Below are positions 9,135-49,542 of a stretch of DNA of 64,000 nt, one piece after another; within the stretch, counting starts at the first letter, position 1; every line of letters begins with the position of its first letter. Position numbers and translations under genes: made by a program. Under the pieces are notes generated by a model. That model was not told where the DNA came from and ran no database searches. It saw only the letters and a program-made list of their open reading frames with translations. Origin of the DNA: Candidatus Uhrbacteria bacterium (GTDB lineage: Bacteria; Patescibacteriota; Patescibacteriia; UBA9934; GWF2-40-263); the NCBI GenBank assembly GCA_016188495.1, contig JACPHU010000029.1, positions 11,136 to 75,135 of the forward strand. The letters are read 5' to 3'.

Positions 9135-9226
9135 AAAATAGTCTCATCATTATACTGTTTGTGTTTGTATAAAAAAAGTAAGCGACAGATCCGTCAGGGG
9201 ACAGATCGAACGCTTACTGTGAGATA

Positions 9227-10303
9227 TCAGATGTTGGGATGCAATATCCCCAACGACTTTACGGCCTCAATGGCCGTTTCAAGACGTTTCCTCCAATCGT
9301 TACCTTCGATGATAACGTAGGGTTCGTGATTTTTCTCCATCTCTTTCACGAACCAATCAAAGCACCTCTTTCGTTCCTCTAGATCCGGCATAGGACGCAG
9401 GTCATCCTTGATCCAGGGTACATCGGGAGACAGCAGAAGCGTAAGGGCATAACGACGATTCTTTGCTTCTTCTGCAATCCAGCCAGGACATCGGCCGAAA
9501 TAATAACAGGACCAGAAGACCGTTGTGCGCAGATCGGTATCGCAGAACAGAACCCGATTTGCCAGACGTGCCATGGTGTCTTCTGTGACCATCTGACCGC
9601 GAGCGATGTCTGGAATATCCGTGTAACGGACTTCACCTGCAGCGTAACGCTTGTGCTTAACGTACTCTTCCAGGAGTCGTCGAGCGTACTCGTCGACATG
9701 CACGGTATCGAAGTGCTCCGCTAACATCGTTGTTAGCGTGGATTTCCCAGCGGACTCTGGTCCGATGATCCGTACACGCTTGGCAAAGTAAGGGCGAGCA
9801 ACCTCGGGAATGTAGCGCCATTCCTTCATCGGATTCTCACGTACGGCTGTACCAGAGATCGGCACCAACGAACGCGAACGATTGACAGGAATATAGGAGA
9901 TACCCAGTTCCTCTGCCATACGCCATCCGTAATCTTCGGAACCGAAGAGAGCATCAAAATCCTTCTCTTCACAATGTTCCTGAATACTCTCCCGCCAGAT
10001 GTTCCAGAAGTTGGCATGTTCCTCTGGCTGCTGTGGCAGGATATCATCGTGGTGAATAACGATGGCATCAGGGAAGCAATCCTTCACCCACTGGTATCGA
10101 ATAGCCCCGGGAATGGGTTCATCCGGCAGAGTACAGACGATAATCGTCAAACGGTTACACGAGGCGCGTGCAAACCGGAGCAGATGCAAATGACCATTAT
10201 GCAATCCCAGAAACTTTCCAAACACGAGTCCGTGTTCGAAACTACGACCGGTGTTATGACCAGTCTTGCGTTGGCTCATCTGGTTCATCATTTCCAACCT
10301 CAT
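9227..10303 (-). CDS. nadR: NadR-like bifunctional NMN adenylyltransferase / ribosylnicotinamide kinase
   Basis: HNGH (HxGH) nucleotidyltransferase motif near the N-terminus and GPESAGKST Walker A in the C-terminal kinase-like half. Confidence 0.6.
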   Translation of the reverse strand: MRLEMMNQMSQRKTGHNTGRSFEHGLVFGKFLGLHNGHLHLLRFARASCNRLTIIVCTLPDEPIPGAIRYQWVKDCFPDAIVIHHDDILPQQPEEHANFWNIWRESIQEHCEEKDFDALFGSEDYGWRMAEELGISYIPVNRSRSLVPISGTAVRENPMKEWRYIPEVARPYFAKRVRIIGPESAGKSTLTTMLAEHFDTVHVDEYARRLLEEYVKHKRYAAGEVRYTDIPDIARGQMVTEDTMARLANRVLFCDTDLRTTVFWSCYYFGRCPGWIAEEAKNRRYALTLLLSPDVPWIKDDLRPMPDLEERKRCFDWFVKEMEKNHEPYVIIEGNDWRKRLETAIEAVKSLGILHPNI

Positions 10304-10539
10304 GAGGATCGTTGTACAACCCTCGTTATAGATTTCTGATTTTGTGTGCTTACTTAGTAACTAAAAAAATTTTGAGCACCAGACTTTTTACCAGAAAATT
10401 TCAATTTTGTCAATATTTAGAGACAAAATCCACATTTAAATTGCTAGATAAAATAAAACTTTCTACTTTTCAGATCATAATAGTTAAGTAGAAACAACGA
10501 ATTTTGTTATTTAGCTCTTTTAATGTTTCTGAGTATGTA

Positions 10540-10600
10540 TAGAATGGGGAACCATTATGACAACCATTATGAAACCATTATGAAACCATTGACAAAACCC
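10540..10600. repeat. short tandem repeat (aaccattatga x3) in AT-rich intergenic region
   Basis: gaaccattatgacaaccattatgaaaccattatgaaaccattgacaaaa read directly. Confidence 0.5.
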
Positions 10601-10639
10601 ATTTATTCTGATAGATTTATTTGTTCTTTTTAAGGATCA

Positions 10640-11155
10640 ATGGGTTTGGGCCGAATTTTTTCGATTAACGCTTTCGTTTATAGAGAGGGAAAAAGGATGC
10701 TTGGAAGACTGTTCCGTTTTGTGGCGGGTCTCTTCGTTGCTCTCTTGAATATTGGTACTCAGAAGAATGTCCGTGCCCGTCGCGTTCGTGCACTAACCCT
10801 CAAGTTGGAAGGGTTGGATAGTCTATCCAGGGAGTGGGCTGCCAGACGGTGGACAACAAGTATAGATGGTTCGACGTTTGTTCGGGCCTGCTATCTCCAA
10901 GAGGAATTGCCCACTGAACGCATTGCTCTGCAGAAGGCGGCTCGAGGATTCAATAGGATTAAGGGCCGTGGTCGTAAACTTCGATACAATGTAACCTTGG
11001 CGGATCCATTGGAGACCAGGTGTCTTGCAGATGATTCTGTATATTGCTATCCGCCACAGGTGTTGATCGTAAAAAATAATTTCGTAAGACCTCTGGAGGA
11101 TCACGAGGTTCAAATGGACCCTGATCATGTTCATGGGACATTAATGTCAGCATAG
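10640..11155 (+). CDS. hypothetical protein (GC-richer than surroundings)
   Basis: 171-aa ORF followed by an intrinsic terminator. No recognisable motifs. Confidence 0.4.
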   Translation: MGLGRIFSINAFVYREGKRMLGRLFRFVAGLFVALLNIGTQKNVRARRVRALTLKLEGLDSLSREWAARRWTTSIDGSTFVRACYLQEELPTERIALQKAARGFNRIKGRGRKLRYNVTLADPLETRCLADDSVYCYPPQVLIVKNNFVRPLEDHEVQMDPDHVHGTLMSA

Positions 11156-36950: not shown

Positions 36951-38420
36951 TTATTCGCTCAAATTGTTGTGTAACCAATTACGTAAAAACTCTGTCGCGC
37001 GCACATCGTCTTCATTATAATTAACAATGTCGTTCAAAATACTTCTGTCATTTTTTTCCAACCATTCTTCATACCAAAAGATTGACTGTGCCCCTCCTGC
37101 TTTTACATGACGCCATTTGAAGTTGAGGAACTTGGATTTGGCGATATCTTTGATGGAGTAAAAATACAAAGGAAAAATAACCGAGTCTCTGACAACGATT
37201 TCCAAATCTACAAAATGAGACATGAACCTTCGCAGAGGATCTGAATCTCCATAGAGCTTGGCTAATTTTTCGCATTGTACCCGCTCGTATTTATTGTAAT
37301 GCCAAACGGTAAACTTCTCTTGAGGTAAAATCTCCAACCATTGCAAAAAAAGTTTCCACATTTCTCGTTCGTCCTCTGGCTGCTCGGCCAGAAAATAAAC
37401 GAAGTAACGCCCATCCTCCTGTTTTCGCACGTGACCTATTTGCGCATATACACCATCAGGATCACCTGAAACCCAAAAACCCCAAAGATACTGCACATCG
37501 ATGAGAGGATCGCCCTCGATGTCAAAATAAATATTGAGTGCCGTTTCGGGGAGTACTGGATGTCCGACCCATTTCAATTCACCGCTCAAAAGCGATTGTG
37601 CCTGGAGTCTCACACGACGAAGGGTATCAATTCCTGCATAAGGAACTTTTGGAAGTGTATCAACATCCATCTCTGCCGCATCTGTTACGGTATTGATACC
37701 GCACTCACGCAAGACTTCATGAGATCGAGAATCCAGACGATATAACAAGGCAATATCATGTGCCTTCTCCGCTTCGGCGACACATTGCGAATACCAAGGA
37801 CTGTATTTACATGAAGAAGAAAGCTTGAGTGGCGGTTTTTTTCCTTTCATTACAGAAAGAATCACATCGATACGATCAAACGTTTTGATTCGATGTTTTT
37901 CTTCAATTGAAAAAGCAATACGCCCATGATCTCGATTGATAATACTAACGTCCTGCGGAAACACTTTTTGAAGTTCCTCAAGAATTTTTGCGTACAGTGT
38001 CAACTGCATCCATTGCTCGGGTTTGATATCAGTCGAGCTTTTGATGTCGCAGGGAGCGTAGTAATAATCACCGAATTCAGACTCTTTATCGTACCTCTTC
38101 TCAAGAAGATCGGGTCGACCGCGATAAAGGACTCCGTTCATTTCAGATTCAATTTCTCCTTGGTAGATAAGCTCAACTCCTTCGCGCATAAGCATCATAG
38201 TGTGAGCAAAGGCATCCGCAGGTTTTCTTTCTTCGACCTCAACAAACGAAAGACCTTTCACATATTTTTCCTCATGCAAAATACCTTTCTCAAGAAGTTT
38301 CTCCATGAGCGCCGGTGTTTCTCCCTTCTTGGATAAATCAGAAAAACGATCATGCCACAACCAATGTGGGCATGTTGCGTATTGAAAAAAGAGGGATGGG
38401 GTGAAAACGAGACGAGGCAT
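36951..38420 (-). CDS. TM0106-family RecB-like nuclease (Cas4-like N-terminal domain + RNase H-like C-terminal domain)
   Basis: N-terminal CPHWLW Cys motif. YFDIEGDP in the C-terminal half. Confidence 0.55.
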   Translation of the reverse strand: MPRLVFTPSLFFQYATCPHWLWHDRFSDLSKKGETPALMEKLLEKGILHEEKYVKGLSFVEVEERKPADAFAHTMMLMREGVELIYQGEIESEMNGVLYRGRPDLLEKRYDKESEFGDYYYAPCDIKSSTDIKPEQWMQLTLYAKILEELQKVFPQDVSIINRDHGRIAFSIEEKHRIKTFDRIDVILSVMKGKKPPLKLSSSCKYSPWYSQCVAEAEKAHDIALLYRLDSRSHEVLRECGINTVTDAAEMDVDTLPKVPYAGIDTLRRVRLQAQSLLSGELKWVGHPVLPETALNIYFDIEGDPLIDVQYLWGFWVSGDPDGVYAQIGHVRKQEDGRYFVYFLAEQPEDEREMWKLFLQWLEILPQEKFTVWHYNKYERVQCEKLAKLYGDSDPLRRFMSHFVDLEIVVRDSVIFPLYFYSIKDIAKSKFLNFKWRHVKAGGAQSIFWYEEWLEKNDRSILNDIVNYNEDDVRATEFLRNWLHNNLSE

Positions 38421-38434
38421 AATTTACCGATTCT

Positions 38435-39391
38435 TTGACAGAATTACATAACAAAGGTAGCATGTCTAATGTAAATAAGTCAAGATTTTATTACATTGTG
38501 AAGTGGACAATAGAAAACCAAACCGAGTTACAATCCGCATTCCTTGCGGGGTCTTTGGGTGCCTGGCGAGAAGCTTTTGAAGATTTTCAGGCTCCGACAA
38601 ATCTCCTACTTACTCATGAAGCACTTCTAGCCTTCACTGCCGAGACCATCGCAGACGATGATGATCCTACGGTTGTGTGTGCTAAGCGATACGCGAGTTT
38701 TCTTACGTCTATGCGAGCTCCGAATGACATTACTATTCAAGTATTGATCGAATGGCATAAGACACTTTTCGACAATCCCAGTGGATATCGCTTCAAACCA
38801 GGCGAGCTTAAGTCCAAGGAAGTTTCCATTCAACTTATTGAATTATTAGGTGAACTGAACCAGGAGTGGGTAGACCCGTTCACGAACATGCATCTGATTT
38901 ATACGGCGTTTATTAAGCTCTCACCGTTTCACGCTGGCAACGAAATAATGGCAAACGCTCTTCTTCACCTCATGCTCATGCATTTCAAGCTAACCACAAC
39001 GCCATCACTCCTACTTTCAAAGTTCGTCCCCGTGCAGGAGGACCTGACTTACGACAATTTTCTGCAGGGACTTCTAGAAGCACAGGAACACCTTCAGTCC
39101 ATTTATCAATCCGTAAGGATATTACAAAAACAATATCGAGATCGTGTAATGACTCTTGAGACCAGGCCAAAAAAGTTAGCTAATGACCTACTGTCATTCT
39201 TTCTTGAGCGGAAATCGTTCACTGTTCGCGAGATCGAATCCGCCTACGGCAAAAAGTATAAAATCACCTACCACACGCTTAACAAGCTTATGACGCAACT
39301 GGCCGAAGACCTCCATCTACTTGAAATCATCAGCTGGGGCGAGCGAAACCGCATGTTCTCACTCAAAGGATATCGAAAATTTTTTACCTAA
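38435..39391 (+). CDS. Fic/DOC-family protein (degenerate Fic motif)
   Basis: LSPFHAGNEIMANALL resembles HPFx(D/E)GNGR. First gene of the Type I R-M operon (3-nt gap to hsdM). Confidence 0.45.
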   Translation: MTELHNKGSMSNVNKSRFYYIVKWTIENQTELQSAFLAGSLGAWREAFEDFQAPTNLLLTHEALLAFTAETIADDDDPTVVCAKRYASFLTSMRAPNDITIQVLIEWHKTLFDNPSGYRFKPGELKSKEVSIQLIELLGELNQEWVDPFTNMHLIYTAFIKLSPFHAGNEIMANALLHLMLMHFKLTTTPSLLLSKFVPVQEDLTYDNFLQGLLEAQEHLQSIYQSVRILQKQYRDRVMTLETRPKKLANDLLSFFLERKSFTVREIESAYGKKYKITYHTLNKLMTQLAEDLHLLEIISWGERNRMFSLKGYRKFFT

Positions 39392-39393
39392 AT

Positions 39394-41433
39394 ATGACAA
39401 ACAACTTTCGAGAAAAAGCACAGCTCATCTGGAACATTGCCGACGTCCTACGTGGAAGTTGGAAACAACACGAGTATCAAGACGTTATTCTCCCGCTTGT
39501 GGTTGTGAAGCGACTGGATTCTATTTTGGCACCAACGAAACCCAAGGTGCTTCAGCAGTACAACGAACTGAAATCTAAGATCGATATTGATCCTGTGTTG
39601 AAATCAACATCGAAAGTCGGATTTTATAACGTATCCGAGTACGACTTTGAAAAGCTCCTCGAAGACCCGGATCATATTTCAGGAAACTTCAAGCATTATC
39701 TAAATGGGTTCAGTGAGAACATTCAGGACATTGTCGAAAAGTTTGAATTTGACCGCCAGCTCTCGAGACTTGAAGGAGGTAACCTTCTCTATCTCATCAT
39801 TAAAGAGCTTAATAAAGTGGATCTGCACCCAGATGTTGTCGATAACCATGAGATGGGATCGATCTTCGAAGAGCTGATTCGCCGATTCTCTGAGCAGTCC
39901 AACGAAACAGCTGGTGAGCATTATTCTCCGCGTGATGTTGTAAGACTTGCGGTAGAGATCCTGCTTGCACCGGACAAGGCACGTTTGGAAAAAGAACACA
40001 TCATTAAAACAGTTTACGATTGCGCGTGTGGTACAGGTGGAATGTTGTCTATTGCGAAAGAATATATTCAAAAAGAAGTGAATGATAAGGCAAACATCTA
40101 TTTGTATGGCCAGGAGCTCAACCCGGTCACATACGCCATGTGCAAGTCTGACATGCTAATTAAGGGCGAGAACCCAGACAACATTAAGGGCGGAGAAAAA
40201 GACCATTCACTTGCCAGCACGCTTTCCAACGATCAATTTTTTGGCACGCACTTCGACTACATGTTGACGAACCCACCTTTTGGAGTGGACTGGAAGAAGG
40301 ATATGGACGTGGTAGAGCGCGAAGCTGAACGCGGATACGCAGGGCGTTTTGGTGCAGGACTTCCACGGTCTTCTGATGGTCAGCTTCTCTTCCTACAGCA
40401 TCTTCTTTCAAAAATGCGACCCGAGAGCGAAGGCGGATCCCGTATTGGAATTGTCTTTAACGGGTCTCCTCTCTTTACAGGAAATGCTGGACAAGGTGAA
40501 AGCGAAATCCGTCGCTGGATTCTGGAACATGATTGGCTTGAAGCTATTGTCGCGCTTCCTGATCAACTCTTTTTCAACACTGGAATTCCAACTTACCTTT
40601 GGTTTATAACCAATCGAAAGTCAGATGAACGCAAAGACAAAGTCCAAATCATCGACGCGCGTGCATTCTCTGAGAAGATGCGAAAGAGTCTTGGCAACAA
40701 ACGCAACTTCATCACGGAAGAATTTAGAAAAAAGGTTTTAGAGGTTTACGCAGATTTCAGTGAAAACGAATACTCGAAGATCTTTAGCAATGAAGAGTTT
40801 GGGTACCGACAAATAACCGTTGAGCGTCCACTAAAGCTCAATTTTCAGGTATCACCGGAGCGGATCGCGGCACTTAAAGAGGAGTCAACATTCCAGAAAT
40901 TAGCAACATCCAAAAAGAAAGGAGAGAAAGGAAAAGAAGAGATTGAAGCCGGGCTGAAGCTTCAACAGCAGGTCATCACAACATTCAATGAAATGCCGAG
41001 TGAATTGTTTAAGAATGGAAATGAATTCGTGAAACTCCTTGAGGGGGTTTGGAAGAATAACGATCTCAAGCTACCTGCTCCACTGAAAAAAGTAGTGATA
41101 GATGCCTTATCTGAACAGGATGAATCCGCCAACGTATTTTTAGACAGCAAAGGTAAACAGCAAGCAGACACGAATTTGCGCGACACAGAAAACGTGCCGT
41201 TGAATCAGGATGTTTACGACTACTTTGCAAAAGAGGTAAAGCCCTATGTTCCTGATGCATGGATTGATGAAAGTAAGACAGACCACAAAGATAACAAGGT
41301 TGGAAAAGTTGGCTATGAAATTCTCGTCACTCGATTCTTCTACAAGTACGAGGCACCACGGTCACTGGATCAGATTCAGAAGGATATTGAGCAGGTTGAG
41401 AGTGAGTTAGATTCACTGATTAAGCAGATGTAG
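39394..41433 (+). CDS. hsdM: Type I restriction-modification N6-adenine methyltransferase subunit
   Basis: N-terminal HsdM domain (LWNIADVLRG). Motif IV LTNPPFGVDW. 679 aa. Confidence 0.9.
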   Translation: MTNNFREKAQLIWNIADVLRGSWKQHEYQDVILPLVVVKRLDSILAPTKPKVLQQYNELKSKIDIDPVLKSTSKVGFYNVSEYDFEKLLEDPDHISGNFKHYLNGFSENIQDIVEKFEFDRQLSRLEGGNLLYLIIKELNKVDLHPDVVDNHEMGSIFEELIRRFSEQSNETAGEHYSPRDVVRLAVEILLAPDKARLEKEHIIKTVYDCACGTGGMLSIAKEYIQKEVNDKANIYLYGQELNPVTYAMCKSDMLIKGENPDNIKGGEKDHSLASTLSNDQFFGTHFDYMLTNPPFGVDWKKDMDVVEREAERGYAGRFGAGLPRSSDGQLLFLQHLLSKMRPESEGGSRIGIVFNGSPLFTGNAGQGESEIRRWILEHDWLEAIVALPDQLFFNTGIPTYLWFITNRKSDERKDKVQIIDARAFSEKMRKSLGNKRNFITEEFRKKVLEVYADFSENEYSKIFSNEEFGYRQITVERPLKLNFQVSPERIAALKEESTFQKLATSKKKGEKGKEEIEAGLKLQQQVITTFNEMPSELFKNGNEFVKLLEGVWKNNDLKLPAPLKKVVIDALSEQDESANVFLDSKGKQQADTNLRDTENVPLNQDVYDYFAKEVKPYVPDAWIDESKTDHKDNKVGKVGYEILVTRFFYKYEAPRSLDQIQKDIEQVESELDSLIKQM

Positions 41434-41435
41434 AT

Positions 41436-42272
41436 ATGAATCGTGAACAAGAACAAAAGGCTAAAGAAGTCATGGGGCACGAAGACGTGTTTAGTGCTCT
41501 TGTTGAGATTTGTAAAAATCGTGAAACAGAATCGGTCGGAAATTATGGATATGAAATCTACATTCCACGAGTTATAGATAAATGGTGTCTAGCAAACATG
41601 GAGCAACTGGGAATCACAAGATGTGATTCAAATGAAACTGAGAAATGGAAAGAGCCTTTGTCTCCATACTTCTACAACGCTGCTTGGGAGCTTTGTCGAT
41701 TGGGTGTCCTTCGACCAGGTGTAACACATCACCATGCACAAGCTACCGATGACGGAAACGCAGGTAATGGATATTCTGTTACGCCATTTGGCGAACAATG
41801 GCTTCAGGAGTCAGGACCAGAATACGTTCCGACAGAACCGGGTCGTTTCGCTACACTTCTTGAACCGTTTGCAAAAGCATTTGGTCCTGGATTTCACGAA
41901 CGAGCCCAACAAGCTATTCGTTGTTACAACGCCCATGCGTATCTTGCCGCCTGTGTTATGTGCGGAGCGGCTGCAGAGTCTATTCTGCTTCAACTCGCCA
42001 TTACGAAGAATGGTGACGAGGGTGCAACACTCAACCTTTATCGTCGATCTGATGGAAGAAAGAAGATCGAGGATTTGATCATTGGCCAGCAGAAGGGTGG
42101 TGTAAAAGCTGACTTCGAAGTGTGCTTCGCTCTTCTGAAGTATTGGCGTGACGAAAGTGCGCATGGTCGAAGGTCTGAAATTGGTGAGGCGGAAGCATTC
42201 ACGTCGCTTGCATTGTTATTGAGAGCCGCACAGTTCGCTCACGATAATTTTCAGATGTTAACGGCTAAATGA
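41436..42272 (+). CDS. HEPN-like (DUF4145-type) protein inserted between hsdM and hsdS
   Basis: C-terminal helical domain ending in KYWRDESAHG (Rx4H HEPN motif). 3-nt gap upstream and 4-nt overlap downstream. Confidence 0.4.
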   Translation: MNREQEQKAKEVMGHEDVFSALVEICKNRETESVGNYGYEIYIPRVIDKWCLANMEQLGITRCDSNETEKWKEPLSPYFYNAAWELCRLGVLRPGVTHHHAQATDDGNAGNGYSVTPFGEQWLQESGPEYVPTEPGRFATLLEPFAKAFGPGFHERAQQAIRCYNAHAYLAACVMCGAAAESILLQLAITKNGDEGATLNLYRRSDGRKKIEDLIIGQQKGGVKADFEVCFALLKYWRDESAHGRRSEIGEAEAFTSLALLLRAAQFAHDNFQMLTAK

Positions 42273-43603
42273 ATATGAAATACGCATTACGAGACAAAAA
42301 AGAGATGAAAGATACAGACCTCACGGGCATCAATTGGATCCCGCGTGGCTGGTCGGTCTTGAAACTAAAACAGTTGACCGATCGACCCTTCCAATATGGT
42401 CTAAACGAATCGGCTATTGATAATGTAGACGGGGATCCCCGCTACATCAGAATTACAGACATCACAACCAGCGGATCGCTTAGAAAAGATACTGTTAAAA
42501 CAATGTCTTCTGAAAAAGCTCGTGGATATATTTTGCAGGATGGCGATTTATTGTTCGCCCGCTCAGGAGCCACGGCAGGAAAACCTTTCATGTATCGTGA
42601 ATTCGACGGTGTAAGTTGTTTTGCGGGATACTTGATTCGCTTCGTCCCGAATAAAGACAAACTATTTCCCCGTTTCCTAGATTTTGTGTCACAGTCTGCT
42701 TATTACGAGAGCTGGAAAAATAGCATTTTTATTCAGGCGACCATTCAAAACATTAGTGCGGACAAGTATAAAGAATTTCTAATTCCCATTCCTTCAACCG
42801 ACGACCAAAAACGTATTGCTGACTTCCTCGATGAAAAAACGGTGGTGATTGATGAGGTGGTGAAGAAGAAAAAGAAGCAGATTGAACTACTAAAAGAAAA
42901 ACGCGATGCACTTATTACTCAGGCTGTGACGAAGGGTCTTAATTCGAATGTGAAGATGAAAGATTCGGGTGTTGAGTGGATTGGCGAGATTCCAGAGGGG
43001 TGGAATTTAGTTAGACTTCGTAGAGTTGTTTCACTAAATCCTTCAAAGCAAGAGTCTAAACATATTTCAGAAGATAGTGACGTTACATTTCTGCCGATGA
43101 CAAAGGTATCTTCTAAAGGCACATTCGATAAAGAAGTTGTTTCAAAAAAGAATGATGTTGCGACTGGTTTCACCTATTTTCGTAACGGTGATGTTATTAC
43201 TGCCAAGATCACGCCTTGTTTTGAAAACGGAAAAGGAGCGTTGGTAAATGATTTAGTAAATGGCATTGGTTTTGGATCGACTGAATTCACTGTTATTCGG
43301 CCAAGCTCTTCAATTAATGGTACGTATCTGTACTACCTAGTGCATTCAGAGATGTTTAGAAAATCTGGTGGGCCGTGGATGTATGGTTCCGCTGGACAAC
43401 AACGCGTGCCCGACAGGTTCATTAAAGAGTTTCAAGCACCGCTACCATCGATTGAGGAACAGGAGAAAATTGTAATGCAACTGGATAGAGGGCTGAACTT
43501 ACTAGACAGATCAATAAAAACGATTCAAAAATCAATAAAACTAATTCAAGAATACCGTTCGTCGCTCATCTCACATGTGGTGACTGGGAAGATTGTTGTA
43601 TGA
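42269..43603 (+). CDS. hsdS: Type I restriction-modification specificity subunit
   Basis: Two target-recognition domains separated by the conserved central coiled-coil EFLIPIPSTDDQKRIADFLDEKT and a C-terminal repeat of it. Confidence 0.85.
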   Translation: MNMKYALRDKKEMKDTDLTGINWIPRGWSVLKLKQLTDRPFQYGLNESAIDNVDGDPRYIRITDITTSGSLRKDTVKTMSSEKARGYILQDGDLLFARSGATAGKPFMYREFDGVSCFAGYLIRFVPNKDKLFPRFLDFVSQSAYYESWKNSIFIQATIQNISADKYKEFLIPIPSTDDQKRIADFLDEKTVVIDEVVKKKKKQIELLKEKRDALITQAVTKGLNSNVKMKDSGVEWIGEIPEGWNLVRLRRVVSLNPSKQESKHISEDSDVTFLPMTKVSSKGTFDKEVVSKKNDVATGFTYFRNGDVITAKITPCFENGKGALVNDLVNGIGFGSTEFTVIRPSSSINGTYLYYLVHSEMFRKSGGPWMYGSAGQQRVPDRFIKEFQAPLPSIEEQEKIVMQLDRGLNLLDRSIKTIQKSIKLIQEYRSSLISHVVTGKIVV

Positions 43604-44427
43604 AGAACTTTCTTGAAACATATCCTTTGTACAAATGGATTGAATTCCAAGCAACCGAGGATCACGAAAAGTATAAAGATGTAAAAGTCCATCCCCCTGC
43701 AGTCAATTTAGATTGTTCTATATGTGAATCAAAGCAAACATATCGAGTTTATGAAGATGGATCGCTAGCTAATTTTGGTGGACATCACGATAACAACATT
43801 TATCGTCTTGAATATGTTTGCGCAGGATGCAAATCTGCAAATATAGAGTTTTTACTTTTCGTCCATCGGAGTAACGGCCACGATGCAAAGAGCAAGAAAT
43901 ATCTCTACAAAATGAAAATTCAAAAAATTGGTCAGTTTCCTGCTTGGTCCATTAATCCAGACCCGGGGATATCCAAATTGTTAGGTGAGCATGTAGATAC
44001 GTATAAAAAGGGGTTGGTTTGCGAATCTCAAGGTTACGGTATAGGGGCATTTGCGTATTACCGAAGGATCGTCGAAGATAACGTCGAGTCGTTACTGAAT
44101 CAAATCAAAGAATTAGTCGAGGATGAAACTGATGTAGTAAAAGGCATTGAAGAAGTGAAGGCTGAACATAATACAGAGCAAAGAATCAGGATTGCATCGA
44201 CCGTACTTCCAGAGTCGCTACAAGTGGCCGGGAACAATCCTCTTTCGGTAATTTATAGTGCTTTGAGTGAAGGGTTACACGTACAAGATGATGAGACCTG
44301 TCTAAATTTGGCGCACAATATCCGTGAAGCGCTGACATATTTAGTGCATCAAATTAATCTACAAACACAAGGTAAAAGACAATTTACGGAGAGTTTAAAA
44401 CAGATTGTAATCGCTAAAACTAAATAG
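43600..44427 (+). CDS. hypothetical Zn-ribbon protein embedded in the Type I R-M operon
   Basis: CSIC...CAGC Zn-ribbon then about 170-aa helical domain. Translationally coupled (4-nt overlap with hsdS). Confidence 0.45.
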   Translation: MKNFLETYPLYKWIEFQATEDHEKYKDVKVHPPAVNLDCSICESKQTYRVYEDGSLANFGGHHDNNIYRLEYVCAGCKSANIEFLLFVHRSNGHDAKSKKYLYKMKIQKIGQFPAWSINPDPGISKLLGEHVDTYKKGLVCESQGYGIGAFAYYRRIVEDNVESLLNQIKELVEDETDVVKGIEEVKAEHNTEQRIRIASTVLPESLQVAGNNPLSVIYSALSEGLHVQDDETCLNLAHNIREALTYLVHQINLQTQGKRQFTESLKQIVIAKTK

Positions 44428-44428
44428 T

Positions 44429-44689
44429 ATGCCATTGCCAGATAATTATAAAGATCTAATTCTTGAGAAACTCAAGGAAAAAGGTGCGATACCTCTGTGT
44501 GAGATTTGTCAGCACAATGACTGGGCAGTTGTGGATCAGGCTATTAGTGCACCAATTTCAGATTTGACTGGAGGAATGAGGATCCCGCAACCGCAGATCC
44601 CTTGTGCTGGTCTCATTTGCAACAACTGCGGAAATTTAAGACTTTTCGCTCTTGGTGCGTTGGGTATTGATGTTAATCCGAAAAAGTAG
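44429..44689 (+). CDS. small Zn-ribbon protein (86 aa)
   Basis: CEIC...CNNCG. Starts 2 nt after the previous stop. Confidence 0.4.
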   Translation: MPLPDNYKDLILEKLKEKGAIPLCEICQHNDWAVVDQAISAPISDLTGGMRIPQPQIPCAGLICNNCGNLRLFALGALGIDVNPKK

Positions 44690-44692
44690 GAT

Positions 44693-45106
44693 ATGCCTGA
44701 CTATATTCATCATGATCCTGATCGCATTCTCTATTCGTTATCTGAAGATGAACTGGAGAATCTTTCAAATCAAGCACAATCACTTTGGAAGGACGTATGT
44801 CTCGTATCATTTTCGGTTGGGATCCCAACTGTAATTAATGCCATTGCAGAATTAAGTAATCAAGAAACATTTCAAATAACGATAACCATTTTCTTAAATA
44901 TATTGATTGGCATCATGGGGATTGCACTTGGAATAGTTTTTGCTATTGCTTGGCACCGATCACATAAGTCAATTAAAAATGTTATGGATAATATAAAAGC
45001 GAGACCAAAGATTGAATTGAATCCTACTACCTCCAATGTTGGAGCTCTGGAGGATCTCCGAGGAGAACTCAAAAAGATTGCGAATCAGCCTGCAAGATGG
45101 GGGTAA
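44693..45106 (+). CDS. small 2-TM membrane protein (137 aa)
   Basis: Two strong hydrophobic helices (VCLVSFSVGIPTVINAIAEL; ITIFLNILIGIMGIALGIVFAIAW). Starts 4 nt after the previous stop. 10 nt before hsdR. Confidence 0.4.
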   Translation: MPDYIHHDPDRILYSLSEDELENLSNQAQSLWKDVCLVSFSVGIPTVINAIAELSNQETFQITITIFLNILIGIMGIALGIVFAIAWHRSHKSIKNVMDNIKARPKIELNPTTSNVGALEDLRGELKKIANQPARWG

Positions 45107-45115
45107 ATAATATAT

Positions 45116-48070
45116 ATGAAAATCACGAATACGAAAGAAATCGGCTTTGAGGAATATATCGAGAAACAGCTCGTCGAAGTTAATGGATACAAGAAACAGT
45201 CCAATACTGCCTATCAACGGAATCTTTGTTTAGATCCGGAGATGGTCTTGGAGTTTATTAATGTCACTCAGGCTGATGCGTGGGGTGAACTTCTCAAGAT
45301 GCATGGTGAAGATATTAACGAGAAGTTCTTTAAGCGGTTATCGGATGAGGTTCGTGACCGCGGGGTGCTTGATGTTCTTCGGAATGGTTTTGCGGATCAT
45401 GGCGTAAATTTCAAGATGGCATATTATCCTCCCAACTCGGGGATGAATGAGGAGACGATTCGTTTGTTCGAGTCGAACGTACTTAGTGCCATGCGACAGG
45501 TTCACTACAGTGAAAAAGATGTTGATTTGTCTTTGGACACGGTTATTTTCCTCAACGGTCTTCCTATCTTTACTATTGAATTGAAAAACCAGCTCACTGG
45601 TCAAAGTGTTCAAAATGCCATTCGCCAATATCGAACAGATAGAGACCCTAAGGAACCTTTGTTTGTGTTTAAGCGATGTTTGGCGCATTTTGCCGTAGAT
45701 ACTAAGCAGGTCTACATGACGACAAAGCTGGCGGGGCTCAAAACGTATTTCTTGCCATTTAATAAGGGATACAATAGCGGCGCGGGAAATCCTCCAAATG
45801 CAGATGGATACATGACCTCTTATCTTTGGGAAGATATTTGGACAAAGAAAAGCGTGCTCGAGCTCGTAGGGAAATTTATCACGCTGCAAAAAGAAAAAGA
45901 TGTTGACAGTAAAGGGCGTGAGATTATTAAAGAGAAACTCATCTTTCCCCGTTACCATCAACGCGACACGGTTCAGCGTTTGATAGCTGACGCACGTGAT
46001 AATAGTGCCGGACAGAACAATTATCTGATTCAACATAGCGCAGGGAGTGGAAAGAGCAATACGATCGGATGGACGGCACATCGATTGTCTGAACTTTATA
46101 ATGCAGATGACAAAAAGGTGTTTGACACGGTTTTGGTTATTACAGACCGGCGTGTTCTCGATCGGCAATTGCGAGACACTGTTACGCAGTTTGAACAGCG
46201 TGCGGGTGTTGTAAAAGCGATCACGGAAGGATCAAAGGAATTGCAAGAAGCATTGGAGGGCGGTGAGAAAATCATCATCACAACTTTGCAGAAGTTTCCA
46301 TTCATCGTTGACTCCATCGGAAATCTTCCCGGTAAGAACTTTGCGGTCATTATTGACGAAGCGCATTCTTCACAATCCGGAGAAGGTGCCGCAAACTTGC
46401 GGGAAGCTTTGACAACGAATGATTTGAGCGATGCAGAGAAACAGGAGTCAGATGAACCTGAGACGACGGAAGACATGGTGTTGCGCAAGCTTCGCAGTCG
46501 AAAGATTAAGACAGACAACATCAGCTTCTTTGCGTTTACAGCCACACCCAAGCAAAAGACGTTGGAGTTGTTTGGGACAAAAAGCCCAATTGATGGCAAG
46601 TATTATCCATTTAGCCTTTACTCGATGAAGCAGGCTATCGAAGAGCGTTTTATTCTTGATGTGCTGAAGAATTACACAACGTATCAGGCGTATTTTGCTT
46701 TGTTGAAAAAAGTTGAAGACGACCCGGAGTTTGATAAGAAAAAGGCACAAAGACTGCTTATTGGATATGTTGAGAAACATGAGCATGCGATAGCGAAAAA
46801 AGTGGAGATCATGGCCGAGCACTTCAGAGCTCGTATTGCTAAAGAGATACATGGCAAAGCAAAGGCGATGATCGTCACAAAATCTCGGCTGCACGCTGTT
46901 CGTTACAAGCAAGCGATGGATGTCTATCTACGCGAACATAACTATCCGTTCAAGGCATTGGTCGCATTCTCCGGAGTCGTAAAGGATGGTGTGAGTGAAT
47001 ATTCTGAGGGGGGAATGAATGGTGTTTCAGAAAAGCAAACGGCGGAGACATTTAAGCAAGATGATTATCGGTTCTTGATTGTTGCTGAGAAGTTTCAAAC
47101 GGGATTTGATCAGCCGTTGCTAGGTGCTATGTACGTTGATAAAAAGCTCGGAGGAGTGAACGCCGTACAAACATTGAGTCGTTTGAACCGTACGACATCC
47201 GATAAGGAAGAAGTGCTCGTGTTGGATTTTGTGAATGACATGGATGATATCAAGGAAGCGTTCCAGCCATATTACACAACGACTGTTTTGTCGGAGGGTA
47301 CTGACCCAAATATTCTTCATGACTTGGAGCGAGATCTCTATGCCTTTAAGTTATTTACACAGCATGAGGTTGATGGATTTGTACATGAGTTATTTCACAA
47401 TGCATCTCCAGCAACCATTAATGCAATCCTAGATAAGGTTATTGAGCAATACCATGAAGGTCTTCCACAAGAACAGGAGGACTTTCGTAAAAAGTGCACA
47501 GATTTTGTGCGTCGATATGCGTTTGCAGCTCAAATTATTCCATACGAAAGTTCTGAACTTGAAAAGCTATACACATTCACACGTCTTCTCTTGAAAAAGA
47601 TTCCACGTGTAAAAGAAGCTTTGCCAACAGATGTATTGGATAGCGTCGACATGGAATCATATAAGCTCGTACATCGTGGACAGGATGCTATTCGCTTGGA
47701 GGATGAGCTTGGAAAGCTTGATCCAATGCAGAGTGGACAAAAGGGTGAAGATATAAAAGAGCATGACCGTCTCTCAAAAATTATCAATGATATAAACGAC
47801 CGGTTCGGCACAGAGTTTTCTGTTGAAGATGTTGTGATCACAAATCAGCTTGGAGAACGTTTGGTGAATAACCCAATGCTTCAGGGATCAATCAAAAACA
47901 ACACCCGCGATGCCGCGAAGATCAAGTTTGACGAAGTTCTCGGACAAGAGTTGGTTGAAATGTTAAACCGTCATTTCGACTTTTATAAAAAACTCGATAA
48001 AAATCCTGACTTGAAGACCTACTTCGGTGAAAAAATGTTCGATCATGTTGTAAATGCGGTAAAAAAATAA
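45116..48070 (+). CDS. hsdR: Type I restriction enzyme endonuclease/translocase subunit
   Basis: N-terminal PD-(D/E)xK (DTVIFLNGLPIFTIELKNQ). SF2 helicase motifs (AGSGKSNT; DEAH in VIIDEAHSSQ). 984 aa. Confidence 0.9.
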   Translation: MKITNTKEIGFEEYIEKQLVEVNGYKKQSNTAYQRNLCLDPEMVLEFINVTQADAWGELLKMHGEDINEKFFKRLSDEVRDRGVLDVLRNGFADHGVNFKMAYYPPNSGMNEETIRLFESNVLSAMRQVHYSEKDVDLSLDTVIFLNGLPIFTIELKNQLTGQSVQNAIRQYRTDRDPKEPLFVFKRCLAHFAVDTKQVYMTTKLAGLKTYFLPFNKGYNSGAGNPPNADGYMTSYLWEDIWTKKSVLELVGKFITLQKEKDVDSKGREIIKEKLIFPRYHQRDTVQRLIADARDNSAGQNNYLIQHSAGSGKSNTIGWTAHRLSELYNADDKKVFDTVLVITDRRVLDRQLRDTVTQFEQRAGVVKAITEGSKELQEALEGGEKIIITTLQKFPFIVDSIGNLPGKNFAVIIDEAHSSQSGEGAANLREALTTNDLSDAEKQESDEPETTEDMVLRKLRSRKIKTDNISFFAFTATPKQKTLELFGTKSPIDGKYYPFSLYSMKQAIEERFILDVLKNYTTYQAYFALLKKVEDDPEFDKKKAQRLLIGYVEKHEHAIAKKVEIMAEHFRARIAKEIHGKAKAMIVTKSRLHAVRYKQAMDVYLREHNYPFKALVAFSGVVKDGVSEYSEGGMNGVSEKQTAETFKQDDYRFLIVAEKFQTGFDQPLLGAMYVDKKLGGVNAVQTLSRLNRTTSDKEEVLVLDFVNDMDDIKEAFQPYYTTTVLSEGTDPNILHDLERDLYAFKLFTQHEVDGFVHELFHNASPATINAILDKVIEQYHEGLPQEQEDFRKKCTDFVRRYAFAAQIIPYESSELEKLYTFTRLLLKKIPRVKEALPTDVLDSVDMESYKLVHRGQDAIRLEDELGKLDPMQSGQKGEDIKEHDRLSKIINDINDRFGTEFSVEDVVITNQLGERLVNNPMLQGSIKNNTRDAAKIKFDEVLGQELVEMLNRHFDFYKKLDKNPDLKTYFGEKMFDHVVNAVKK

Positions 48071-48207: not shown

Positions 48208-49542
48208 ATGTACGCACAAAACACGAACAACGATCCCGGCAAAGCCATACCAATCCGCTACTGCCTTTACGCGAGAAAATCGTCCGAGGATGACGAACGC
48301 CAGGCATTATCAATCGAGAGTCAGGTTAAGGAGGCACTTGAACTTGCTACGAGAGATGGCTTGAATGTTGTCGAAGTTCGCCGTGAAAGTCATTCTGCGA
48401 AAAGCTCCGGGTCACGCCCGGAGTTTAATCGTTTAATTGGGGACATTCGGGAAAAGAAATTCGACGGAATCCTAACATGGGCGGCGGATCGCATAAGTCG
48501 TAACGCCGGTGATCTTGGAACCGTTATCGATCTCATGGATCAAGGACTGCTTCGAGAAATTCTTACGCATGGCACAAAGTTCACCAACTCACCGAGCGAC
48601 AAGTTCATGCTCATGATGATGTGTGGTCAGGCAAAGCTGGAGAACGATAACAAGGGTGTGAACGTGAAGCGTGGGTTTCGGGCAAAGATCGAGATGGGTT
48701 TTCGACCAAACATGTCACCACTCGGATACCTCCACGATAAATATGCAGAAAAAGGAACATGTAAAATCTTTATGGATCCTGTTCGTGGACCAATTATCAA
48801 AGAAGTATTTCATAAAGTTGCCTACGAAGGTTGGACTGGGCGCAGCGTAAAACGCTGGCTCGATGATGAAATGAAGCTCACGACGCGCAAAGGTAAACAG
48901 GTATCGCTCAGCATGATCTACCGCATGATGGATAATTCGTTCTACACGGGTCGCTACGAGTTCCCGCAAGGAAGTGGAAAATGGTACGACGGTAAGCACG
49001 AGGCACTCATCACGAAGGATATATTTGATCGTGTGCAAGAAGTCATGAAATGCGCTCCGAAGGCGTTACCGGGAACTCACGAATTCGCCTTCACAAGAGT
49101 CTTCAAGTGCGGTGAGTGTGGATCCGGTATCAGCGCAGACCAAAAAGTGAAACGACTGAAAGACGGAACGACAAAACGATACGTCTACTATGGATGTATG
49201 AAGCGTTGGATGACAGGATGCAAACAGCCGTACATTCGCGAGGAGGAGTTGCTCGACCAGCTCTACAAAATCATCGATAAGGTAAACATCAATGAACTTG
49301 CAGCTATCGAGCGAATCAAACAAGAAATTGAGCGACTGACGAAGATGATCTCAAGCCTCGGCGGTCACATCGCGACCGCAAAAGTCGCCGAAATCATGCC
49401 GGACATCGATGTCTACGCTTGCGCGAAATACATCTTGAAAGAAGGCACCAAAGACGAGAAACGTGATCTGCTTAATCACATCAATACTGAATTGTTGATC
49501 TCTGACGGAAAGATAAGCTTCAAGGGTAAGGCTAAACGCTAA
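48208..49542 (+). CDS. large serine recombinase (resolvase/invertase catalytic domain + recombinase domain + zinc ribbon)
   Basis: YARKSSEDDERQALSIESQ with catalytic Ser, resolvase fold. CGECGSGISADQ zinc ribbon. AGGAG RBS. Confidence 0.85.
   Translation: MYAQNTNNDPGKAIPIRYCLYARKSSEDDERQALSIESQVKEALELATRDGLNVVEVRRESHSAKSSGSRPEFNRLIGDIREKKFDGILTWAADRISRNAGDLGTVIDLMDQGLLREILTHGTKFTNSPSDKFMLMMMCGQAKLENDNKGVNVKRGFRAKIEMGFRPNMSPLGYLHDKYAEKGTCKIFMDPVRGPIIKEVFHKVAYEGWTGRSVKRWLDDEMKLTTRKGKQVSLSMIYRMMDNSFYTGRYEFPQGSGKWYDGKHEALITKDIFDRVQEVMKCAPKALPGTHEFAFTRVFKCGECGSGISADQKVKRLKDGTTKRYVYYGCMKRWMTGCKQPYIREEELLDQLYKIIDKVNINELAAIERIKQEIERLTKMISSLGGHIATAKVAEIMPDIDVYACAKYILKEGTKDEKRDLLNHINTELLISDGKISFKGKAKR

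Follow-up and report, generated by a model that had tools for sequence, protein, structure and literature searches.

What are three uncharacterized genes doing between the specificity (hsdS) and restriction (hsdR) subunit genes of a Type I restriction-modification (R-M) operon, and do they act as one module or as separate genes that share a junction? The operon is located in a metagenome-assembled genome (MAG) of Candidatus Uhrbacteria (Patescibacteria), in which one tight gene array spans 38.4–48.1 kb on the + strand of the window, that is, the whole 64,000-nucleotide (nt) stretch of DNA that was analyzed. The three genes are the open reading frames (ORFs) ORF275 (43600..44427, +), ORF86 (44429..44689, +), and ORF137 (44693..45106, +), numbered by the lengths of their products in amino acids (aa) and named by NCBI as hypothetical proteins HYV70_05615, HYV70_05620, and HYV70_05625, respectively; because each has conserved homologues, all three are real genes. 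An earlier reading of this DNA, made from its letters alone (the sequence-only reading), described them as a single module in which a zinc-ribbon sensor, a tiny zinc-ribbon partner, and a membrane effector act together. Its placement of the genes is confirmed from the ORFs and the sequence: the spacings from hsdS to hsdR are −4 (an ATGA overlap), +1, +3, and +9 nt. The explanation that we favor, with moderate confidence, is that the hsdS-hsdR junction is a slot that holds two unrelated units, ORF275, which would be a phage-triggered toxic RNase, and an autonomous ORF86/ORF137 pair.

Two separate units in the hsdS-hsdR slot

We compared the genes with homologous loci, which are labeled with L-numbers (L081, L136, etc.). 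An alignment of the ORF275 family was scanned against 185,579 species genomes and yielded 80 loci; 54 ORF86 loci were collected from context look-ups and a metagenome scan, the latter seeded with the alignment of close homologues. No homologue of ORF86 or ORF137 is found in any of the 80 ORF275 loci, and no homologue of ORF275 is found in any of the 54 ORF86 loci; among the loci compared, the three genes occur together in the window only.

The orthologous operons, in which HsdR and HsdM are 58–82% and 63–75% identical, respectively, to those in the window, contain the units separately. The closest relatives of ORF275 (L136 and L137; 79% and 75% identity) are found in the order hsdS-ORF275-hsdR, with gaps of 1–2 nt and nothing else between the genes; ORF275 also occupies the hsdS-hsdR slot without ORF86/ORF137 in Saccharibacteria and other Patescibacteria (L010, L031, L039, and L007). 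The reverse is found in L081 and L094, with the order hsdS-ORF86-ORF137-hsdR and no ORF275. Because orthologous operons hold ORF275 alone or ORF86 and ORF137 alone, these are two independent units and not one module; thus, the sequence-only reading had joined parts that do not travel together. Also, because orthologous operons differ in what they contain between hsdS and hsdR, the junction is a variable cargo slot. The hsdM-hsdS junction is a variable slot too: it is occupied by ORF278 in the window and by an unrelated gene encoding a 179-aa protein in L081, and it is empty in L010 and L039.

As a separate observation, the hsdS-hsdR slot of L031 (Saccharibacteria) contains two genes in tandem, one for a Ymh-family HEPN protein (9157-10002) followed by the ORF275 homologue (9992-10879).

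The hsdS-hsdR junction in these small Patescibacteria genomes can therefore be described as a slot into which independent accessory units are swapped and, as such, is a practical place to seek new defense cargo in an under-studied phylum. The behavior of the slot, the ORF275 family, and the ORF86/ORF137 cassette do not overturn current concepts.

The ORF86/ORF137 cassette

ORF86 has 16 close homologues (66–87% identity), and its profile retrieves 1021 cluster representatives (50% identity clusters), most of which are stand-alone proteins of 80–110 aa; the members of this family share four Cys residues and a C-terminal CxxCG...ALGxLG block. In ORF86 the invariant residues are C24, C27, C64, and C67, as expected for a soluble Cys4 zinc-ribbon miniprotein; with four invariant Cys residues in each of ORF86 and ORF275 (vide infra), both zinc-ribbon assignments in the sequence-only reading stand. 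The predicted fold of ORF86 is confident and has no structural match, and the family has no counterpart in the PDB. The hydropathy of ORF137 (hydrophobic segments at residues ~34–54 and 58–90, followed by a K/R-rich C-terminal tail) agrees with the earlier description of a two-helix membrane protein, that is, a two-transmembrane (TM) hairpin whose cytoplasmic N- and C-terminal parts carry conserved motifs; the motifs that flank the hairpin in the partner proteins are YIHYDPxR, WKD, FLN, IAW, IKxKPK, and NVGxL. Neither ORF86 nor ORF137 matches a curated family in Pfam, NCBIfam, PHROGs, or PADLOC; among 26 partner proteins (ORF137 and 25 others), we found no recurring Pfam family, no match to SLATT, and no match to the PADLOC models for 2TM effectors.

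The two genes are a conserved pair. A homologue of ORF137 is located directly behind the homologue of ORF86 in 29 of 29 close loci (21 distinct), and the overlap between the genes is 4 or 8 nt in 16 of the 21 distinct loci. In the window, where the genes are adjacent, ORF86 and ORF137 share a reading frame with TAG GAT between them (44687-44695); a stop-codon read-through that fuses the two was considered and rejected, because the overlapping homologous pairs are in different frames. In three loci (L088, 2691-2783; L089; L090), which correspond to one of the 21 distinct loci, the ORF137 homologue behind an intact ORF86 homologue is reduced to 30 aa, and the cassette in these loci may be decaying. 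More distant relatives of ORF86 (28–33% identity) often have a gene for a small membrane protein (~90–135 aa, one or two predicted TM segments) directly behind them, and in L114 (5965-6626) and L117 (3477-4138) distant ORF86-like genes (~38–40% identity over a portion of the protein) abut a downstream gene for a DoxX-family multi-TM protein (−1 nt); the occurrence of DoxX instead of the two-TM partner suggests that the zinc-ribbon miniproteins generally partner small membrane proteins.

Two small, co-inherited genes that are adjacent in the window and mostly overlap elsewhere have the layout of a Type II-like toxin-antitoxin or abortive-infection (Abi) pair. ORF137 resembles the SLATT family and the 2TM effectors of CBASS, Pycsar, and retrons in architecture only, that is, it is a small two-TM hairpin with cytoplasmic flanks; like the 2TM effectors, it is encoded beside the gene for a small putative sensor or regulator. 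No enzyme that generates a nucleotide signal was found among the annotated neighbors of ORF86/ORF137. The soluble ORF86 and the two-TM ORF137 probably form a membrane-associated complex, and as a two-gene cassette they move independently of both ORF275 and R-M systems.

The genome contexts of the cassette are mixed. In the window, L081, and L094, it is located in the orthologous R-M slot directly before hsdR; because it is present in some orthologous operons and absent from others, the cassette is accessory and mobile. Elsewhere, an N6_Mtase/Eco57I gene is located ~0.7 kb downstream (L097/L100), an integrase gene is nearby (L083), or Fic and HATPase_c_3 genes are in the neighborhood. In L084 (4803-10207), the cassette is located between the genes for an integrase and a 1068-aa protein with phospholipase D (PLD) and SNF2 helicase domains, followed by the gene for another protein of >800 aa; this locus looks like a defense-type island. 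Most neighbors, including priA-def, tRNA_edit, and TipAS/MerR (MutS and ETF-QO for distant relatives), are unrelated to defense. The cassette is not specifically tied to R-M. The sequence-only reading had named homologues in contexts unconnected with R-M or defense as evidence that would speak against it; for ORF86/ORF137, whose contexts are mostly mixed or housekeeping, this is partly what the comparison shows.

What, then, does the cassette do? We tentatively prefer a regulator or sensor (ORF86) paired with a membrane-acting effector (ORF137), much like a toxin-antitoxin or Abi system, but regard even this as a minority possibility. About as likely is a non-defense membrane function, in which the pair, e.g., a small zinc-binding regulator acting on a membrane protein in envelope or metal homeostasis, was inserted in the R-M operon by chance; this alternative is the most credible of those that we weighed, although the odds are against it. 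Several observations favor it over a role in defense: the neighbors are heterogeneous and often encode housekeeping functions; ORF86 is unusually conserved for a defense gene, retaining its 66–87% identity across different contexts; the 1021-cluster superfamily is composed of stand-alone small proteins, and some of its distant members are paired with DoxX; and the cassette has no match to a defense family (including those in PADLOC) and ORF86 is found in none of 2.9 million viral contigs. Against it, the cassette is present in some orthologous R-M operons and absent from others, and in several loci it is accompanied by integrases, the PLD/SNF2 helicase protein, N6_Mtase/Eco57I, or Fic, a pattern that is typical of mobile accessory cargo. 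Whichever function is correct, the ORF86/two-TM cassette is a well-conserved and widely distributed pair that lacks functional annotation.

The ORF275 family

ORF275, a single-gene unit, belongs to a large family (at least 767 proteins; 767 homologues at E ≤ 1e-3) that occurs in bacteria, in archaea, and in some phages and is left unannotated by current domain and defense databases. The members are found in Patescibacteria, Proteobacteria, Bacteroidota, Planctomycetota, Cyanobacteria, Chloroflexota, and several archaeal lineages; two are encoded by Leptospira plasmids and four by IMG/VR contigs. In family scans of the three proteins, the sole strong hit is that of ORF275 to phrog_25239 (1.2e-49), a PHROGs entry with no assigned function; the UniRef label ‘DUF4145 domain-containing protein’ is attached to one family member only.

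An alignment of 28 family members and a predicted structure divide ORF275 into two domains. The AlphaFold2 (AF2) model (pLDDT 82.8) is beta-rich to residue 113, followed by six helices (122-143, 147-170, 177-188, 192-202, 214-223, and 231-274). In the N-terminal zinc-ribbon/beta domain (residues ~1–113), C39, C42, C74, and C77 are invariant in the 28 sequences, identifying a Cys4 zinc ribbon. The alignment also contains a conserved CESQGYGIGAxxYxRR block and an LSxGxH block; the invariant polar residues are E142, S143, R155, E159, N213, S223, and H227, and R155 (invariant) and R156 (nearly so) are both located in helix 2. The C-terminal domain (residues ~122–275) is the better conserved of the two, with a mean column identity of 0.70 vs 0.45 for the N-terminal domain.

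The arrangement of the helices is that of an HEPN core, that is, a four-helix up-down bundle in which helices 2 and 3 are separated by an insert (the extra helices 177-202), and the invariant S223-x-G225-x-H227 spans the last part of helix 214-223 and the loop that leads to helix 231-274. In the survey of the HEPN superfamily, the Rx4-6H motif is located where helix 3 ends, and the usual insert is located between helices 2 and 3 (PMC3710099); this match in placement is the reason that we read the domain as HEPN-like. From the model, the domain probably has an HEPN-like fold. Thus, although the sequence-only reading could assign none of the three proteins to a family, ORF275 is similar to HEPN proteins at the level of the fold and has the domain plan of the defense proteins RAZR (PD-T7-4) and DS-38.

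Several results weigh against this assignment and against an RNase function. The Rx4-6H motif is incomplete: the His is present, but none of the 28 aligned members has the Arg, and no Arg is located 4–8 residues upstream of H227 in ORF275 (Y-S-A-L-S-E-G-L-H); the domain may, therefore, not be an RNase. Neither ORF275 nor any of the 28 family members matches a Pfam DUF4145 or HEPN model at E ≤ 0.1. PADLOC returns no named defense protein for ORF275 and no PD-T7-4 among the 28 members at E ≤ 1; PADLOC-DB v2 presumably contains a model for PD-T7-4. The profile of the ORF275 family gives chance-level matches only against PDB sequences (E up to 10), and a Foldseek search of the PDB with the ORF275 model gives nothing at E ≤ 0.001. 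The NCBIfam scan assigns no family to ORF275, and neither Pfam nor NCBIfam detects an ATPase domain. On the other side, HEPN families that lack the Arg exist, including c2405 (in which the His is retained) and HEPN-T, and, according to the HEPN survey, families without the Arg may be active where other basic residues are conserved (PMC3710099). Judging from the alignment, R155/R156 of helix 2 may replace the missing Arg. We would put RNase activity of ORF275 at slightly less than an even chance.

RAZR (PD-T7-4) is a ring-activated zinc-finger RNase that forms higher-order oligomers, is activated by ring-shaped phage proteins, and cleaves single-stranded RNA; its catalytic residues are R146 and H154, and its zinc-finger domain (~65 aa) varies more than the rest of the protein and determines specificity (Nature 2026; PMC13017515). 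ORF275 shares the zinc-finger and HEPN plan, and its N-terminal domain is likewise the more variable; however, this beta domain is larger (~113 vs ~65 aa, with RAZR compared by its description only), the motif Arg and any match to Pfam DUF4145 (PF13643) or PADLOC are missing, and ORF275 is often embedded in R-M operons. Because ORF275 fails the sequence-level tests for RAZR and DUF4145 and lacks the motif Arg, it is a variant and not a member. DS-38 (DefensePredictor) is an experimentally validated defense protein with HEPN and zinc-finger domains, and its finger is unlike that of PD-T7-4 according to the authors (bioRxiv 10.1101/2025.01.08.631726). Compared by description only, ORF275 has the same combination of domains.

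The location of ORF275 invites a comparison with the anticodon nuclease PrrC, the example on which the sequence-only reading had based its analogy to effector cargo in Type I operons. The gene order in EcoprrI (Type IC) is hsdM-hsdS-prrC-hsdR, so ORF275 is embedded in a Type I locus at the place of prrC; the N-terminus of PrrC is an ABC-type ATPase domain. ORF275 differs from PrrC in that it has a zinc-ribbon/beta domain instead of the N-terminal ABC/AAA-type NTPase, in that the canonical HEPN motif is present in PrrC and the Arg is absent from ORF275, and in that most members of the ORF275 family occur without R-M genes. The PrrC gene encodes a toxic RNase within a Type I R-M locus and has a guardian role under inhibition of restriction (PMC12707154); PrrC-like and R-M-linked HEPN proteins are discussed together in the HEPN survey (PMC3710099). 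In that survey, R-M operons were found to contain DUF4145 and Ymh HEPN genes, frequently together with Fic/DOC toxins, and these HEPN genes were proposed to encode PrrC-like second-line effectors; the DUF4145-like, Ymh, and c2405 families include fusions to zinc ribbons (Anantharaman et al., 2013; PMC3710099). ORF275 resembles these families in combining a zinc ribbon with an HEPN-like domain in an R-M operon that is headed by a Fic-like gene, and it lacks the Arg as c2405 does; however, the current Pfam models of these families miss the ORF275 family. The analogy to PrrC-type cargo therefore holds for ORF275, which is a zinc-ribbon, HEPN-like protein that recurs in hsdS-hsdR slots, and does not hold for the three genes as an effector module.

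The genome contexts connect part of the family to R-M. An R-M-type gene is located within ≤5 kb in 18 of the 80 ORF275 loci and is adjacent in 14 (the seeds are from several R-M lineages); in 11 loci, hsdM, hsdS, or hsdR genes surround the homologue. Unrelated Type I systems in Gammaproteobacteria (L003, L021, and L026; two other Type I lineages) again have the homologue between hsdS and hsdR, and in five loci (L002, L013, L014, L035, and L073) it adjoins N6_N4 methyltransferase and ResIII genes that belong to Type III-like systems. In a Pfam survey of 143 immediate neighbors (with crude gene calling), ResIII, SWI2_SNF2, Methylase_S, HSDR_N, and N6_N4_Mtase lead; integrases, resolvases, Ymh, Fic, and AAA_15/AAA_21 come next. 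Against a function tied to restriction, 62 of the 80 loci have no recognized R-M gene nearby. No partner gene recurs in these remaining loci; therefore, a single gene, ORF275, forms a self-sufficient unit. One member is encoded by the temperate Autographiviridae Rhizobium phage vB_RleA_TRX32-1 (MW023914.1; L091, 4851-5720), where it is the only gene on the opposite strand in a stretch of ~10.7 kb, between the genes for the major capsid and other head proteins; it is placed like a moron.

With RAZR/PD-T7-4, DS-38, and PrrC as analogues, the likeliest role for ORF275 is that of a phage-triggered toxic RNase that would back up restriction by abortive infection or growth arrest; the variable Cys4 zinc-ribbon/beta domain would be the sensor, and the conserved HEPN-like four-helix domain would be the effector. 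If the protein is active, the class of zinc-finger/HEPN RNases that sense phages would be extended by a member with a larger sensor domain and no Arg in its motif. A broader proposal, in which ORF86/ORF137 is a new and widespread two-gene conflict module (immune or toxin-antitoxin-like) that acts on the membrane and ORF275, separately, represents an Arg-less HEPN RNase lineage that has a new sensor domain and stands guard over R-M systems of both Type I and Type III, is rather unlikely. Still a little less probable is that ORF275 is an inactive HEPN-like regulator or adaptor of the R-M complex that participates in assembly, restriction alleviation, or target sensing. The absence of the motif Arg from all of the aligned members and the adjacency to R-M-type genes in 14 of 80 loci are as expected for such a protein. 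However, the loci without R-M genes and the lone genes in some phages and plasmids point to a function that is self-sufficient, the invariant polar residues resemble an active site, and, as noted above, other Arg-less HEPN families may be active; we therefore retain the toxic RNase as the preferred role.

The R-M operon and its surroundings

The operon encodes a complete Type I set with Pfam and PADLOC scores well over the cut-offs: hsdM, the methyltransferase (39394..41433, +; Pfam N6_Mtase, 1.8e-60, and HsdM_N, 3.7e-22; PADLOC MTase_I, 8.5e-274); hsdS, the specificity subunit (42269..43603, +; two Pfam Methylase_S domains, 4.6e-21; PADLOC Specificity_I, 2.7e-95); and hsdR, the restriction subunit (45116..48070, +; Pfam HSDR_N, SWI2_SNF2, ResIII, and T1R_D3-like; PADLOC REase_I, 3.5e-38). 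A scan for promoters and terminators inside the operon detected no terminator-like sites on the + strand, and promoter-like sites are not more frequent than in shuffled sequences; with no internal terminator-like site and no excess of promoters, co-transcription of the array is compatible with the sequence. The GC contents of the cargo genes (0.37–0.43) differ little from that of the window (0.43), so they give no clear sign of recent acquisition.

This compact organization speaks for one abortive-infection module of the three genes, in which ORF275 as sensor and ORF86 as partner would control ORF137, an effector that would disrupt the membrane once restriction is blocked: the spacing is tight, the genes are in a single operon, and no terminator-like site separates them. 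Such parts can be combined, as in the HEPN protein Plim_2023, a fusion that also includes a zinc ribbon and two TM segments (PMC3710099). Nevertheless, we judge the single module to be very improbable, because the trio is confined to the window, with no co-occurrence in the 80 ORF275 or the 54 ORF86 loci, and because ORF275 (L136/L137) and ORF86/ORF137 (L081, L094) are each found without the other in orthologous operons. The least credible alternative is that ORF86/ORF137 holds the Type I enzyme or incoming DNA at the membrane, with the result that DNA would be restricted where it enters: the cassette is directly before hsdR in three orthologous operons, and a membrane-localized nuclease that acts during genome injection is known (SNIPE; PMC13190303), but for most cassettes no R-M gene is in the vicinity.

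The hsdM-hsdS slot contains ORF278 (41436..42272, +), a candidate DUF4145/HEPN protein (Pfam DUF4145, E = 0.0032, 17.9 bits, below the cut-off of 23.1 bits) whose translation shows, close to the C-terminus, the sequence RDESAH, a canonical Rx4H motif; it is, thus, a second candidate for HEPN-type cargo in the operon. A profile search with ORF278 against PDB sequences gave no match. We considered whether ORF275 and ORF278 are paralogues and rejected the possibility, because both BLASTP and hhalign are negative; ORF275 has no profile similarity to this DUF4145-like protein of its own operon.

A Fic/DOC-like gene (38435..39391, +; Pfam Fic, E = 5e-4, under the curated cut-off; PADLOC SoFic, 6e-14) heads the operon, and a Fic-like gene is also found upstream of hsdM in L081, L094, L010, L031, and L039. 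The canonical Fic motif is HxFx(D/E)GNGRxxR; at the expected place the gene in the window reads SPFHAGNEIMAN, so, from its sequence, the encoded protein looks catalytically degenerate.

Divergent to the adjoining operon is a gene (36951-38420, −) for a 489-aa protein with a Cas4-like PD-(D/E)XK N-terminal region and RNase_H_2/DUF2779; a DUF2779 protein is encoded at the equivalent position in L081. A search for repeats around the operon that might mark the boundaries of an island returned short pairs only, compatible with chance, and no convincing flanking repeats. Downstream of the operon is the gene for a large serine recombinase (48208..49542, +; Pfam Resolvase, Recombinase, and Zn_ribbon_recom), and the whole R-M island may be mobile. 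A homologue of the recombinase (E = 9e-143) is located 3' of the orthologous operon in L081 (17642-18949), where ParB/N6_N4 methyltransferase and GIY-YIG genes stand between the operon and the recombinase.

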